A stretch of 59,217 bases of DNA, filler included, from Globobulimina sp. (Eukaryota): the NCBI GenBank assembly GCA_003354225.1. It is 10 parts of 10 records of this genome, joined end to end, with 100 filler letters (N's around TTAATTAATTAA, not from the genome) between each part and the next. Parts side by side here need not be neighbours in the genome. Positions count along the whole stretch, not along the records: positions 47,470 to 53,294 come from PIVH01000430.1; 9 more parts are not named here. One strand, 5' to 3'. Every line of letters begins with the position of its first letter. The stretch's first letter is position 1. This document shows, piece after piece, positions 5,846 to 53,394 of the stretch. The notes beneath the pieces were generated by a model that ran no database searches, had not been told where the DNA came from, and saw only the letters and a list, made by a program, of their open reading frames with translations. The position numbers and the translations under genes are program-made.

Positions 5846-5945
5846 NNNNNNNNNNNNNNNNNNNNNNNNNNNNNNNNNNNNNNNNNNNNTTAATTAATTA
5901 ANNNNNNNNNNNNNNNNNNNNNNNNNNNNNNNNNNNNNNNNNNNN
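5846..5945. other. Artificial contig linker
   Basis: 44 N + TTAATTAATTAA (stops in all six frames) + 44 N. Confidence 0.99.
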
Positions 5946-11784: not shown

Positions 11785-11884
11785 NNNNNNNNNNNNNNNN
11801 NNNNNNNNNNNNNNNNNNNNNNNNNNNNTTAATTAATTAANNNNNNNNNNNNNNNNNNNNNNNNNNNNNNNNNNNNNNNNNNNN
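11785..11884. other. Artificial contig linker
   Basis: 44 N + TTAATTAATTAA + 44 N. Confidence 0.99.
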
Positions 11885-47245: not shown

Positions 47246-47369
47246 TGAAACTTTAGATGGTGATACCGATGCATGTCCTTCTGAATACACGATTACTCGT
47301 GTATGGACCGTAAGCGATTGTGCTGGTAACCAAACATCTCATACGCAAATTATAACAGTACAAGATACT
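47245..47369 (+). CDS. Bacterial HYR-like repeat fragment (Bacteroidota surface-protein type), probable chimera
   Basis: DACPSEYTITRVWTVSDCAGNQTSHTQIITVQDT matches the C...YTITRTW...D.CGN....Q.ITV.DT repeat. Confidence 0.8.
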
Positions 47370-47469: not shown

Positions 47470-50400
47470 GTGTTGTTGATGTCACATATGTGTACACTGA
47501 AAAATCCAAAGCAAATTACCAATTCCAAAAGACTACGTATTGTAAATATAAAGGCAGGCATCTTGAGAAAATTCAAGTTTCTTGCACTCCCACAGGAAAA
47601 GTAATATTCATTGACGGTCCATTTTTATCTGACAAACATAACAATGATGACAATATTATTTGGGATAAAACAGTGAGTGATTCTGAGCATCCAATAAATA
47701 AAATATTTGACAAATCAACGGATACCTTTGTTATGGATAGAGGCTATATTTCATGTGCAAAAGGGAATGATTGGTTTGATTTGATATGGCCCAGTAAATG
47801 GTACGAAGATACTACCACACAATTGAGCACAGCAGATGCAAATACATCCAGGTAAGTAGCCATTTAACTTAAGCATAACAGTTCTTTTTTCAGTTTGTGT
47901 TTATTTTAGGTAGATTTTCATCTGCATTGATTAGAGTTCAGACACAAATTTAGTAAGATTACTTGCAACTTGAGCTGACTTTATTACTGGTTCCAGCCAC
48001 TAGAGCAAATGTTTGTACTACTACATTGAGGACAAAATCAGTTTTAACCTCAAGCCCTGATTAAAAAACATTTTAAATGCCTTCAAATTTTTGCAGCTGT
48101 TTGTATTGAAAAAGCGCAATTATTTGATTATGAGTCCTTAAATTTGATTACTGTGTGTCGTAACCTGAAAAATGTTCATTTTATCATTGTTTGAGGTTAA
48201 AATTGATTTTCAAAGCAACGCAATAGTATAAACATTTGCTGTATGTACTAAACACAGTACTAAAGTCATCTCAAGATGAGAGCAATCTTACTAAATGTAT
48301 TGCTTGACTCTAATCAATCCAGATGAAAAATCTAGCTGCCTGAAAAATAAAATTTCGTGTGTGAAACGATCGTTTTTATGTGTTTTTCGTTTGAAGGAGA
48401 GTTACCAAAATACGTAATGTCATAGAAAGAGTTTTTGCACGGATTAAAAAGTGGACAATATTGCGATATGAACATTCCATCCAATATGATCCAAAAAAAA
48501 TTGTTAAAATATTTAATATTATTGCTGCCTGTCTTAATGATTTTGGTGCTTGTATGTATTCCGAAAATAGATTAAAAAGAATGACTCAAGATTGTACACG
48601 AATTATGCAAAGGCAAGCGACCATTAATGATTGTGATGTGAAAGAAAAAACAGTCACTCGAGGTTGGAGCGGTAGGAATTTTAAAGACAAGGTGTCTTTC
48701 ATTCCAAAATTTGATTTAAATGATTTACGTGATTATGCTACCTCCGCTTATATAATAGAATGTTGTTTGTATTATGCACACCACTCCACACAAACAAAAG
48801 ATGTAAAATTTTTATATCATAAATCAAGAAAGCGTTCCATAAACAACCCGTTATCACAGCAAGAAATATATGAGAATGATATTTGTAAATGTAGCATCAA
48901 AATTACTGGCATGTGTGGAAAAATGGCTCGAAATGATCTAAATCCAACTAAATATCAGGTTTGGCATCGGTTTGGTTCAACTTTGAATAATTCTATTTCA
49001 TTTTGTATCTGTCCAAATGGCAAGAAAACTGCTGGGGCATGTGTTCATAGCATTGCATCATTATATATTTTATATCATAATATAAATGGCATTCCTTTAC
49101 CGAAAGCAAATACTAAAACCATGAAATATTATAATAATTGTACTGATTTAAGTAAATGGAAGAAGGAATGGAAGAGATTGAAAGCAATGACTGCTGGTGA
49201 AAATCTTTCAGCAATAAACACAATTATAATTCCAACAACGCCAACACCATTTCCTACAAACAATACTGATGGCGTAATTGAATGCTGTATTTGTAAAAAA
49301 CCAGGTGGTATGTCATGCAACTTTGATAATTGCCATAATTATATTCATAATACATGCCATAATCCATCATTTCCAGATCAATCAGATACATTCTGTGAGT
49401 ATCATAAATTTCTTCGCGTACCACATATAAATAACTCCAACACAAATATAACAACAACAACGCCTATAAATAACAATACATTAGCCCATAATAGAAAGAA
49501 ACGTAGAAGAAGAAATAATAGAACACCAGCGTCTAGATCCAGACGTTCAGCATTGAGATCAAATTCAATTACTACATCTACCATTTCAAATATCTCAATA
49601 CCAATAAACATACCAACATTAACTCCAACAAATGAAAACATATATTGCGACTCGGAGGCCTCACAAGAGCCACATAATAATTCAGGAAATATTATAACAT
49701 TGACTTGCAACAAAACTGGACTCAACAATCCATGTAATTGTTGTTATATTAATTCTATATTGCAAGCATTTTATTGTGTTTCAATCATACGAGAAACATA
49801 TATTAAACATGGACCGTTATTTCCACCTGAAACATTATCATATAAATTAGGACAATTATTCACGACCATGAATATTAATAGAAGGCGTAGAGCCAATGGA
49901 ATATCCATTGAACATATAACAAATTTTTTAGTGAAATATTCGACAGACAATAACGACGCGTATGATTGGGTAGGTACACAGTCAGATGCCTGCGATTTTT
50001 TGACCCAAACAATATTTCCAATTTTGACTGAAGAGGGTATTCAGTTCGCATCAACATACAATTATGATTTTGATTGCCATTCACTGTTTAGAAACGCTGT
50101 TGATCCAATATTTTACAGCCAAAACTTAAATCCGATGGTTCAATTTCAATCATTTTATTGGACAAATAGTACATATCATCGTGGTCCTCGTGAACCTATT
50201 TATTCGCAAGTAATTGATGTTAATATTCAACAGGAATCATTGGAAGAATGTCTATTTGATTATATTCAGCCTGTAGCAAATCATATTGATCCAAATCCTT
50301 TTGTAACTAATAGAAATACACGAATTCAAAGCGTATCAAAAATAAATTGTTATATATCATTCCCAAATCTGTTAATATTTCGATTGAAGCGCTGGAATGA

Positions 50401-51031
50401 AGGTTATCGACAAGATAAAAATAATAAACGTATCACTTATCCATTGGGTTTGAATATGAATAAATTTGTTTATAAAGCAACAGGAAGTGCCAGTAATGAA
50501 AATTCTGTATATGTTCATTATCCAAACAATGGCCCATATATTTATGATTTACGTTTTGTAATAATTCATATTGGAATATCAACTGGCGGTCACTATAAAT
50601 GTTTAACTGTTGATTGTGACACAAATTGGTACATATTCAGTGATTCATATTATCGAATATGTCAACCTCATGAATATAAGCAATATTTTGGTGATGGAAT
50701 ATCCAATAAAAATGCTTATATTTTAGGATATATCAAACGTAACACTGAACAGTTTGATTTGTTTTCTTATCATGATAATGCAACTCAGTCTGATGGAGAT
50801 ATTGAGGGAGATATTGATGGAGATATTGATGGAGATATTAGTGATGGAGATATTGATATGGTTTCAAATACAAATAATGTGGATATAAATGATGGCAATA
50901 TTTCCAACGCATCAAACAACGCATATGTGAATCCACGAAAAAGAAATACCTCAGACTTGAATAATAATCATTCCATCAATGCAGTGCATCATTCATATAA
51001 CATGAGACCAAGGAAAAAGCGAAAGACTTGA
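47470..51031 (+). CDS. PIF/Harbinger-ISL2EU-type (DDE_Tnp_4) transposase fused to SWIM, PHD and USP (peptidase C19) domains, 5' truncated, 2 exons
   Basis: D (VVDVTY, 47478), D (MDRGY, 47736), E (VIERVF, 48425); intron 47852-48396 (AG|GTAAGT...TTGAAG|G); SWIM CICPNG...CVH; PHD CCIC...C..DNC...HNTC...CEYH; USP GLNNPCNCCYINSILQ, QSDA, LIFRLKR, HIG..TGGHY, WYIFSD; C-terminal NLS RPRKKRKT. Confidence 0.88.
47911..48334. repeat. Long imperfect inverted repeat (fold-back) inside the transposase intron
   Basis: 47911-48053 aligns with the reverse complement of 48191-48334 (shared blocks include ATTGATTAGAGT, ATTTAGTAAGATT, AGCAAATGTTT and TTTTAACCTCAA). Confidence 0.92.
50792..50857 (+). repeat. 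Coding 12-bp tandem repeat GATGGAGATATT (DGDI) x5
   Basis: Directly visible; encodes DGDIEGDIDGDIDGDISDGDID. Confidence 0.9.
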
Positions 51032-51071
51032 TTTAAAGTTGATTTAAGACTTAGGGTTTTCAAAAAGTTCA

Positions 51072-51085
51072 TGGCTCTGATACCA
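51072..51085 (-). promoter_or_regulatory. tRNA-iMet primer-binding site (TGGTATCAGAGCCA) preceded by an LTR-like ...CA end
   Basis: The minus strand reads ...GCAGACA TGGTATCAGAGCCA TGAAC; 14 nt complementary to the 3' end of initiator tRNA-Met. Confidence 0.7.
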
Positions 51086-51228
51086 TGTCTGCTGCACGCG
51101 TACGTCGGTCAAAAACTATCACAAGTATGTGGTATGATGATGGTTTATCACAATATGAACAAATCAGCCTGTCAAAAATGATGGTCTTCAGGGCTATATT
51201 TTCACAATGTTCTGTTTTTGATATATTT

Positions 51229-51663
51229 TTAGAAACCATTTAAATCACAGCCTCCCTTACAGCCTCCCCCCCTTGATACCAGATCTAACCAATTTTCTTT
51301 CTTTGAAACACATCTTTTTTTGCATGTCTCACCTTTTGGACAAGGCCACCAATCACAGTGATTACCTGTCATCTCGCCACCGTCGCTTTTATCAACACAT
51401 CTGTTTTTACAGACCAATCCTTCTTGACACCAGGTGCTGCCAATCCTTCTTACAGAAAATCCTTTTTTTTTGGTCCAAATTCCGCAACTATCACCTTTAC
51501 CATGTTTTGCCCAGACATTAGCTGCATTACGACCGACTCCTCTGATACCACTGGCAACACCATAGACGCCTACAGTACCAGCTACAGCTGCCGCACTCGC
51601 AACATCTGCCACAGATATGTTAAACCAGGAAAAGATGAATGTTACCAAAAGACTCAATTTCAT
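51229..51663 (-). CDS. Small secreted Cys-rich cationic protein
   Basis: Signal MKLSLLVTFIFSWFNISVA, a Gly/Ala-rich segment, and two copies of C-x2-G-x2-C-K-x-R-C-V-x-K. Confidence 0.7.
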   Translation of the reverse strand: MKLSLLVTFIFSWFNISVADVASAAAVAGTVGVYGVASGIRGVGRNAANVWAKHGKGDSCGIWTKKKGFSVRRIGSTWCQEGLVCKNRCVDKSDGGEMTGNHCDWWPCPKGETCKKRCVSKKENWLDLVSRGGGCKGGCDLNGF

Positions 51664-51865
51664 GATATCGGGCGCCGGCAATTTGAATGTTTGAAATGTG
51701 TTTAGGATTTTTGTCGAATGAGATCTAAGGTTAAAATGAAATCGATATCAGTTTAAAATGACAGTTTGTAGTATAAAAAGCAACTCATAATCAAGTATAA
51801 AAAAGGCAACACAATCAACATAATCAGATACAGCTGGTCATTATGACAAAAATATTGTGTGCCAT

Positions 51866-52286
51866 GATATTGGCTGTCGCATCAATGAATGCTGCAGAAT
51901 TATTGCCATTGATATCAATCCAAAAAAGTTTGACATAGCAAAGACAATGGGCGCCACAGAATGTATCAATCCATGGATTATCCAACGGAGCGAATTGAAC
52001 AAGTCATCATCAAGTTAACTGGTGGCGGTGTGGATTATTCATTTGAATGTGTTGGCATACCGTCTTTGAGGAGATCTGCGTTGGAGTGCACGCATCGTGG
52101 ATGGGACAAAGTGGTATTGTTGGCATTGCAGCGGATGGCTCAAAAATAAAAACTGATCCTATGCAATTGGTGAGTGGTAAATCATGGAAAGGCTCATTGT
52201 TTGGTGGTACCAAAGGGAGACATGGTGTGAAAGAAATTGTGGATTTAATTTGGTTTATGAAAACAAAAAAAAGAATGCAAAATTAG
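51866..52286 (+). pseudogene. Class III alcohol dehydrogenase (S-(hydroxymethyl)glutathione dehydrogenase) C-terminal fragment, two frameshifts
   Basis: [23 protein letters not shown] / [14 protein letters not shown]...ALECTHRGW / GQS...QLVSGKSWKGSLFGG across three frames; no N-terminal half. Confidence 0.85.
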
Positions 52287-52479
52287 AACTGTTGTTCATT
52301 TATTGAGTTATATCTTCAGAACAAGTACTTGTTTCTGTAGGATTTCCATATAATTATCGAGTGGAAGAGAGGTGACAGAGTGCAAAAGCTTATAAACAAT
52401 TGAAAAGTATTAGATCATCTTACATAGAAAATACAAGAAAGCAAACAAAAAAAAAATGAAAAAAAAAGGTGTGTGTCTA

Positions 52480-53294
52480 TTAAATTGGAATCGCAGTTTT
52501 AATCTTCGAAAGGACTTTGACTTTTTCCTCCAAAACAGTCACATCGACCTTCAAGACCCAAACATCCCTTTTCAGATCGGTCAAATCCGCCGTTTTATTT
52601 TGTAGTCCAAACTGGATCTCCTCCAATCTCTCCTCAATCTCACTCGTCAATGTCTGTATATTGACATATTCGTTGCTATTCTGCACATTGTTCAGCGCCG
52701 AGACCTTGACCAATGATTGGAATATTTTCCTCGACTGTTGCAACGTAGTGGCGATCGTATGCACCAATTCCGGCCGATTCTTATGCTGCGCCTCAAATTT
52801 GCGCCTCTCCTCATCCGTACATTGCCTATACTTTGTTTTGGAGATATCCTTAAAATCCACATCCACCAAAATCTGCACCACTTTATGCAATTTGCCCTGT
52901 TGGTTGGCCTTAATTAAGCCTTTCAAGCCCTTGATCCACAAAGCCGCCTCCTCCGCAGATTTGGCCACCACGTCCAACGACTTCAACTTGCTGCCATAGA
53001 TGATGCTAAACGACGCCTTTTCTAATGTTTTCTGCGTGCATTGCTTGAAGACTTCGGTCTGTTGTCCGTCTAAGATGTCCTTCATCTCTTTGATGTTTAC
53101 ATGCGTCTCATTCAGCGATTTCTTGCGCGAATACCACAGCAATTTGGTCAAATCATGGCTGAGTTGGAACCGCCGAAAGTGAGGGAAGCCGCGTCGGCCA
53201 TATTTGAGCATGGCGGCGCCCCGTTTCATCACCACAATGGCATCGATTTTAGGGCGCTTTTTCTTCTTCGCCGCCTCCGCGTTTTCCACATTCT
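52480..53294 (-). CDS. PH-domain protein (PLC/PRAF-type PH) with C-terminal coiled coil, 5' truncated
   Basis: AIVVMKRGAAMLKYGRRGFPHFRRFQLS..LLWYS, GQQTEVF, SFSIIY, SLDVVAK..EAALWIKGL. Confidence 0.85.
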
Positions 53295-53394
53295 NNNNNN
53301 NNNNNNNNNNNNNNNNNNNNNNNNNNNNNNNNNNNNNNTTAATTAATTAANNNNNNNNNNNNNNNNNNNNNNNNNNNNNNNNNNNNNNNNNNNN
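53295..53394. other. Artificial contig linker
   Basis: 44 N + TTAATTAATTAA + 44 N. Confidence 0.99.

Follow-up and report, generated by a model that had tools for sequence, protein, structure and literature searches.

A DDE_Tnp_4 transposase gene of Globobulimina sp. that includes a SWIM-type zinc motif, a PHD-like finger and a ubiquitin-specific protease domain

Isopeptidases have been described in several groups of transposons. Ginger1 transposases bear a C-terminal OTU or Ulp1 protease, accompanied in one case by a PHD finger, and Mutator-like elements (MULEs) with Ulp1 are also known; for the Ginger1 enzymes, Bao et al. suggest histones or repair proteins at the break as targets (PMC2836005). 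In Helitrons and Helentrons, the VTD and OTU deubiquitinases (DUBs) have conserved catalytic residues, VTD shows linkage preferences and activity on ubiquitin-AMC (Ub-AMC), and these DUBs have been proposed to shield the transposition proteins from proteasomal degradation, their repeated domestication being described as well (PMC9741609). In the case of the ubiquitin-specific protease (USP, peptidase C19) class, the literature found consists of a single sentence of 2010 (Bao, Kapitonov and Jurka, PMC2836005), with Gladyshev and Arkhipova 2009 as its source, which presents XP_001314237.1 of Trichomonas vaginalis as a transposase_11 (pfam01609) joined to Peptidase C19 and takes this fusion to hint at a part for the ubiquitin pathway in transposition; beyond that sentence nothing on USP-transposase fusions was found, and Repbase and the supplements of the papers may list more. 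In this study, we describe a gene at positions 47470-51031 of a 59,217-base stretch of DNA from Globobulimina sp. (assembly GCA_003354225.1), hereafter the window, in which a DDE_Tnp_4 transposase core, a SWIM-type zinc motif, a PHD-like finger and an intact-looking USP domain follow one another in one predicted protein.

We read this gene, with a probability of about 0.6, as that of a transposase of the DDE_Tnp_4 (PIF/Harbinger/IS5-like, 'PHIS'-type) cut-and-paste lineage, one subclade of which has a complete USP. Like Ginger1 and MULE proteins, as far as the passages of PMC2836005 describe them, it joins a cut-and-paste DDE transposase to a C-terminal cysteine isopeptidase, which in theirs is at times accompanied by a PHD finger, but its transposase is of the DDE_Tnp_4 type instead of Gypsy-integrase-like or Mutator-like, its protease is a USP/C19 instead of OTU or Ulp1/C48, and its hosts are Rhizaria-type protists instead of animals and plants. 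With the Helitrons it would share a transposon-borne DUB with conserved catalytic residues, whereas the Helitron protein is a rolling-circle RepHel and not a DDE enzyme, and its DUBs are of other classes, the USP class not being reported in the passages of PMC9741609 that were available. The T. vaginalis protein is, like the window gene, an IS4/IS5-like DDE transposase with a C19 domain in a protist, although the one sentence that describes it mentions no SWIM extension, PHD finger or family analysis. An earlier, sequence-only reading of this locus had held that no USP was known with a transposase of this type, which was nearly right but overlooked this precedent (PMC2836005). XP_001314237.1 was not among the 63 matches of the HMMER search given below, the query of which included no more of the DDE core than its 45 final residues. 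The combination of a transposase and a USP is rare, recurring and barely described, and it extends the theme of the transposon-encoded isopeptidases.

The gene and all of its parts lie on the plus strand. Removal of one predicted intron (47852-48396) joins exon 1 (47472-47851) to exon 2 (48397-51031), giving 3015 nt, which amount to 1004 codons followed by a TGA stop, and thus reproducing every coordinate, as well as the frame of at least 1004 residues, given by the sequence-only reading. The 878 codons of exon 2 are open, for which the chance at this base composition is ~2e-32. The gene runs from the first base (47470) of its 5.8-kb contig and is truncated at the 5' end, which is a matter of assembly and not of biology. 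As judged from the full-length relative P0005, in which residue 270 is the first catalytic Asp, some 270 residues are missing at the N-terminus, and the gene as present represents its 3' four fifths. P0005 is an environmental protein of 1120 residues from a 7.9-kb contig of another assembly, with DDE_Tnp_4 at residues 268-435 and the USP profile (UCH) at 732-1052. Its identity to the window protein is 48% in exon 1 (P0005 residues 268-360) and 40% in the extension that follows the DDE core; the two USPs are 34% identical along 358 residues (E 1e-48), and the strings TQSDAC.FL, YIYDL and EY.(K/Q)YFG are common to both. Since the same order of parts recurs in this independent protein, the transposase and the USP of the window belong to one real gene, as had been proposed. 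Although the identity between the two proteins has fallen to 34-48%, the USP appears to have been retained with its full set of catalytic residues.

The USP / peptidase C19 domain extends over 49700-50770 and matches the Pfam family UCH (PF00443) along the whole profile (positions 1-254 of 254, 90.2 bits, E 2.1e-25). All 38 matches of a PDB search were USPs, with USP47 as the best (1e-11) and USP12/46 aligning over the full length. The Cys box GLNNPCNCCYINS is aligned to GLVNQAMTCYLNS of USP47, and the His box GGHY..WYIFSD to GGHY..WYVFND. The oxyanion Asn and the catalytic Cys are found in GLNNPCNCCY (NCCYINS, 49736-49756; Cys codon 49742-49744), the codon for the catalytic His is at 50591-50593 within GGHY (50585-50596), that for the Asp is at 50642-50644 within IFSDS (50633-50647), 17 residues past the His, and a QSDACDF box is present at 49979-49999. 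We take these residue roles from what is generally understood of USP7-type enzymes; in USP7, the His is followed by an Asp or Asn 17 residues on. The oxyanion Asn, Cys, His and Asp are all conserved in P0005 as well. The site thus looks complete and intact, and the full-length PF00443 match, together with the USP47 alignment, bears out the earlier claim of a USP with Cys, His and Asp in place.

The DDE_Tnp_4 core is split by the intron, and Pfam matches it on both sides, as the sequence-only reading had it. Exon 1, cut at its 5' end by the contig start, encodes the N-terminal two thirds of the core and matches positions 1-88 of PF13359 with 27.4 bits, over the cut-off of 24.8. The start of exon 2 (48397-48540) encodes its C-terminal part, including the catalytic Glu, with a match to positions 113-156 (17.8 bits). 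The triad is complete: the first Asp (codon 47478-47480) lies in VVDVTY (47472-47489), the second (47736-47738) in MDRGY (47733-47747) and the Glu (48425-48427) in NVIERVF (48416-48436). The two Asps align to those of VDCTY and GDRAY in P0005 and of VDGTY and DRGF in other relatives, and, among the 35 family rows covering its column, 34 conserve the Glu. A doubt raised by the first Asp motif, which reads DVT where DGT is usual, proved harmless, as the relatives retain the Asp but vary at the Gly (VDGTY, VDCTY, ADGGY).

The core is followed by a family-specific extension of the transposase (48541-49170), which contains the motifs GW, P.FD..LR, PY..HA, G..SR.SRND and Y.V.HRF and ends in a CxCx9CxH zinc motif. 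This extension of ~230 residues is common to all the relatives, as judged from 63 of them and from the alignments A1 and A4. The SWIM-type motif, CICPNGKKTAGACVH (CICx9CVH), is located at 49004-49048, and its four ligands are conserved in 51/51, 49/51, 50/51 and 49/52 of the rows covering them. What had been claimed as a SWIM finger is a CxCx9CxH motif with nearly invariant ligands, for which the window protein's own sequence gives no match to Pfam SWIM (PF04434). Of the 64 family members, nine have a Pfam SWIM match with E <= 0.01 (the best being 2e-4), and the scores known for P0039 and P0060, 18.6 bits each, fall under the cut-off of 19.6 bits. When the family alignment A4 was used as a profile against the PDB, the only matches were to nanobodies, all attributable to chance (E >= 0.05), and no solved relative of the extension was found. 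Elsewhere, the Zisupton elements combine a SWIM domain with a SUMO protease.

Between the extension and the USP, a PHD-like C4HC2H zinc finger (CCICKK..CEYH, 49283-49405) can be read directly in the sequence, with the pattern C-x2-C-x7-C-x4-C-x4-H-x2-C-x12-C-x2-H. The pattern is thus as had been claimed, but Pfam PHD (PF00628) is not called in the window sequence, where the finger gives only zf-HC5HC2H_2 with E 3.3, and a phmmer search of the PDB with the finger gave 14 weak matches, the best being 1wev, an unnamed RIKEN cDNA, with E 0.018. We take the other 13 names to be those of PHD-finger proteins (SP140, Jade-1, KAP-1/TIF1-beta, SPP1, BPTF, PHF13, AIRE, Mi2-beta and TRIM33). The relative P0060 has a Pfam PHD (E 9e-6) at a similar place, and P0005 has no PHD-like finger. 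The finger leads into a low-complexity linker rich in Asn, Thr and Ser (49406-49699), with a basic cluster, RKKRRRRNNR, at 49493-49522; the linker is not conserved with P0005, whose own is acidic. After the USP, an acidic tail (50771-51031) contains a 12-nt tandem repeat encoding GD(I/E) (50791-50857) and ends at the TGA stop (51029-51031), preceded by the basic motif RPRKKRKT (51005-51028), which resembles a nuclear localization signal (NLS) and closely resembles RSRKKRKTD of P0019, a relative lacking a USP. Both the basic linker and the terminal NLS of the earlier description are hence present.

The family was collected by a HMMER search with residues 1-440 of exon 2 against 1.84 billion representatives, which returned 63 proteins with E <= 0.001, 31 of them <= 1e-10 and nine <= 1e-30, corresponding to 63 clusters at 50% identity. 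The Pfam architecture was scanned first on the ten matches of at least 464 residues, the longest of the 63. Over 64 rows, Pfam finds DDE_Tnp_4 in 30 (E <= 0.01, best 8e-21), DDE_Tnp_1 in four, HTH_Tnp_4 in two, UCH in one (P0005) and PHD in one (P0060). The full-length relatives P0005, P0032, P0039 and P0048 start with a Cys-rich N-terminus (CxxC..CxxC) and a helix-turn-helix region, after which come the DDE core, the extension with its SWIM-type motif, a tail of low complexity and, at the end, a basic motif; the family proteins usually end without a USP. An IQ-TREE analysis was limited to the 43 rows that have 170 residues or more within the part homologous to window residues 1-262 (239 columns), which excluded 21 shorter rows. 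In this tree, the window protein groups with P0003, P0004, P0015 and P0005 in a clade supported at 100/98, P0005 being sister to the rest, so that both USP bearers fall inside it. The sister clade includes P0006, P0007 and P0019, which have complete C-termini with no USP and the same kind of terminal basic motif. The simplest reading of this distribution would be that USP-coding sequence was inserted once, at the base of the clade bearing it, into the tail of low complexity and ahead of the ancestral NLS.

Source names were sought for 30 of the 63 matches, and the named hosts are mostly Rhizaria, namely the foraminifera Nonionella stella (P0015 and P0024, with the cluster members P0068 and P0069) and Bolivina argentea (P0022), from EukProt, and the vampyrellid Leptophrys vorax (P0033, also from EukProt, whose source name is a TRINITY identifier). 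P0026 comes from a set labelled 'merc', one relative bears only the name 'DDE superfamily endonuclease', and the rest are nameless. Transcript assembly is shown by the source name for P0033 only; we presume that the foraminiferal EukProt sets are transcriptomes and that 'merc' stands for a metatranscriptome. Taken with the TRINITY name, the presumed nature of these sets makes the relatives appear to be transcribed. The two N. stella sequences P0015 and P0068 are identical apart from an internal segment of 22 residues that directly follows the SWIM motif, a difference that suggests alternative splicing of this relative. A further named member, P0027 ('SWIM-type domain-containing protein'), is found on four contigs of the bdelloid rotifer Rotaria sordida, all other named members being from Rhizaria; its presence there could be due to horizontal transfer or to contamination.

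At a broader level, the PHIS groups comprise PIF/Harbinger, ISL2EU, Spy, Pangu and Nuwa (PMC4122938, PMC4482050). As these sources present them, Harbinger has a second open reading frame (ORF) of the Myb/SANT type, ISL2EU has a THAP N-terminus together with a YqaJ ORF, and Spy has a single ORF and no zinc finger. The window protein is like them in its DDE_Tnp_4 core (with weaker DDE_Tnp_1 matches) and in the same layout of the DDE triad. The SWIM-bearing extension and the USP, in turn, belong to the window family and are not features of the PHIS groups as described, supplements aside; the main text of PMC4482050 does not contain the words SWIM, PHD, ubiquitin or protease. In the first 266 residues of P0005, Pfam finds no THAP at E up to 10, and the Cys-rich CxxC..CxxC arrangement that is visible there has been assigned to no class. 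No YqaJ or Myb ORF is present 3' of the window gene, the 5' flank lying beyond the contig. The proposed placement in the PIF/Harbinger-ISL2EU group therefore holds only at the level of Pfam DDE_Tnp_4, and membership of ISL2EU is not supported, as the full-length relative has no THAP match.

The intron (47852-48396, 545 nt) starts with GTAAGT, ends with a pyrimidine-rich tract followed by AG, and is flanked on both sides by AGG. If read unspliced, the frame meets a stop right after exon 1 (AGG TAA, 47850-47855). Most of the intron is a foldback with arms of 151 nt (47915-48065 and 48179-48329, 76% complementary) and weaker pairing out to ~47897-48352, and its RNA is predicted to fold with -172 kcal/mol (z = -11). 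The intron is absent from all seven relatives tested (P0005, P0032, P0036, P0039, P0048, P0052 and P0053), which align on either side of its site, the two matches abutting or overlapping by a few residues in six of the seven; in P0005, residues 361-393 are unaligned at the site. In the case of P0032, 'QLSTIDANVTRKVTRLRN' pairs without gaps with the window's QLSTADANTSR, at the end of exon 1, followed by RVTKIRN, at the start of exon 2. The exact position of the intron is fixed by this homology to intron-less relatives across the junction. It looks like an insertion of the type of miniature inverted-repeat transposable elements, or an introner-like one, which may have occurred inside a small intron or may itself be the origin of the intron. 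No other copies of the foldback are present in the window.

Three other explanations of the locus have to be weighed against a transposase gene with its own USP. That an assembler or an amplification artefact joined a transposase fragment to an unrelated USP gene is very improbable. Among the sequencing runs, X1, which may be the source sample, holds the sequence at a share of 0.87, and X2 and X3 hold almost nothing of it; the contig graph of X1 is tangled, since a 251-nt contig (49506-49756) has a depth of 17, approaching double the 10-11 of its neighbours, one contig skips from 48464 to 49506 (omitting 48465-49505, 1041 nt, in frame, with a 2-nt overlap), and two joints run backwards, from 49756 to 48521 with GTA between and from 50702 to 48426 with T between. 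These odd joints may have arisen as chimeras during amplification, or may reflect additional copies of the element that are rearranged or carry deletions, and the end of the preceding contig, given below, implies that chimeras may exist in the assembly. However, Logan contigs of X1 do tile the junction (48521-49535, 49506-49756 and 49727-50702), albeit with overlaps of only 30 nt at each step, the frame stays open throughout the linker, the codon composition is uniform across the transposase-USP junction, and the same order is found in P0005, a protein of another assembly whose transposase and USP halves are each homologous to their counterparts in the window. It is a little less improbable, yet still distinctly unlikely, that the 545-nt interruption is an unspliced, nested insertion of a foldback element, which would have broken the transposase and left the downstream frame as a relic. 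Its long inverted repeat, its absence from the seven relatives, the immediate stop it would cause and the lack of any RNA run among those listed as holding the sequence would agree with a dead copy, but the ends are canonical, its exact removal restores a gap-free alignment to the relatives, and every catalytic residue encoded in the 878 codons downstream is intact; because of these open codons and intact residues, such an insertion would have to be very recent.

The third explanation, which we consider possible if unlikely, is a domesticated host gene, that is, an immobile former transposase that the host has taken over, PHD and USP modules included, for a function in chromatin or genome rearrangement. 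The domesticated transposases HARBI1 and PiggyMac serve as models for such a fate. Every domain has remained intact across a deep divergence, and the relatives come from sequence sets that we take to be transcript-derived, both of which would suit a host gene. Domestication would also suit several observations that weigh against a mobile element: the window contains no second copy of the gene within its 59,217 bases, a spliceosomal-type intron is present, and a seemingly ordinary ORF lies 200 bp away, with other ordinary genes close by. To these should be added, as further weaknesses of the transposon reading, that only two USP-bearing members are known, that P0003, P0004 and P0015 are fragments from contigs or transcripts of ~1.1 kb, and that the alignments A2 (extension) and A3 (USP) gave nothing that tblastn confirmed among metagenome, viral and prokaryote-genome contigs, the unconfirmed pattern matches numbering 40 + 270, 58 + 172 and 33 + 139, respectively. 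The base composition tells against domestication, as the GC content at third codon positions (GC3) is 0.294 in exon 1, 0.223 in the extension, 0.215 in the linker, 0.199 in the USP and 0.244 in the tail, far under the 0.337-0.626 of the eight other ORFs measured in the window, including the PH_12 neighbour on the same contig (0.626). This uniformly low GC3, which sets the gene apart from host genes, is what one would expect if a transposon gene had had its USP for a long time, although the codon bias of host genes can also differ with their level of expression. Moreover, the three DDE residues are intact, the family with its 63 clusters is diverse and patchy, a bdelloid rotifer appearing beside Rhizaria, and its variable C-terminal additions (none, PHD or USP) look like those of a transposon family and not of one orthologous gene. 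On balance, a transposase gene of the DDE_Tnp_4 lineage remains the reading that we prefer.

Less sensitive searches returned little. A word-index protein search with the middle and USP parts of the window protein gave no match, which is a weak negative as the same search missed P0005; the same low-sensitivity method, applied with the USP part of P0005, found only P0005 itself. The ESM Atlas gave no usable match.

As for its surroundings, the window is made of ten pieces, from 5845 down to 5823 bases in length, linked by nine N44-TTAATTAATTAA-N44 spacers (5846-5945, 11785-11884, ... 53295-53394), and we read these pieces as separate contigs of one fragmented assembly, ordered by length, so that adjoining pieces are not neighbours in the genome; the transposase-USP gene lies on the piece 47470-53294. 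A 172-residue ORF on the minus strand (51232-51747), with a signal-peptide-like start, rich in Cys and without a Pfam family, is convergent with the gene and is the one that ends 200 bp from its stop codon. Next to it, at 51824-52286, pieces of ADH_zinc_N (the C-terminal half of zinc-type alcohol dehydrogenases) match profile positions 10-41 and 41-91 in three successive frames of overlapping ORFs, and represent either a frameshifted pseudogene fragment or sequence errors; the PH_12 gene lies in this 3' flank too. A 54-nt segment at 51162-51215, with a 93% match to a short, deeper X1 contig, was considered as a transposon end and rejected, as no inverted repeat or other supporting feature accompanies it. 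No Rfam family matched on the contig, and the window contains no tRNA genes. The remaining pieces encode ordinary eukaryotic proteins, among them an ABCA transporter, an amino-acid transporter, START, THOC1, an ATG17-like protein, FGAR-AT and a bromodomain/TPR protein. At the end of the piece preceding that of the gene (47257-47369), an AT-rich, eukaryote-like frame runs into a bacterial-type HYR_4C motif (Pfam E 2.7e-5); this contig is possibly chimeric, which bears on the trust to be placed in the assembly.

On the predicted polypeptide, an NLS-like motif is found together with DDE and USP sites that are both complete, and this arrangement allows us to propose how the parts might act. The protein would enter the nucleus, where the DDE site would excise and insert its own element, and the tethered USP would remove ubiquitin locally. 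Its likeliest target would be the transposase or the transpososome itself, thereby spared from proteasomal degradation. After these would come ubiquitin-bearing histones or repair factors, at either the donor or the target site, where contact with chromatin or histone tails would be made by the PHD-like finger. The sequence-only reading had likewise proposed that the USP may serve anti-silencing, by stripping repressive histone ubiquitin or by guarding the transpososome against degradation. Since P0005 is devoid of the PHD-like finger, this finger would not be essential to the role of the USP. We hold the full picture, namely an active, chromatin-directed USP that is needed for movement and strips ubiquitin from histones, repair factors or the transposase, with the finger docked on H3 tails, to be speculative and rather unlikely as it stands.

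If this model were true, the USP would be the first enzyme of its class with a demonstrated part in a transposition machinery, and this in the foraminifera and their relatives, a host group whose mobile elements are almost unstudied. Transposon-encoded isopeptidases of the OTU, Ulp1 and VTD classes are known, the need for them being unexplained, and a USP on a simple DDE transposase represents a fourth, independently acquired class, which strengthens the case that the removal of ubiquitin or ubiquitin-like proteins is a general requirement or advantage for transposition. The locus also offers a compact system, contained in a single polypeptide, for testing deubiquitination in transposition, and it marks out an undescribed lineage of transposases with a SWIM-bearing extension in Rhizaria.

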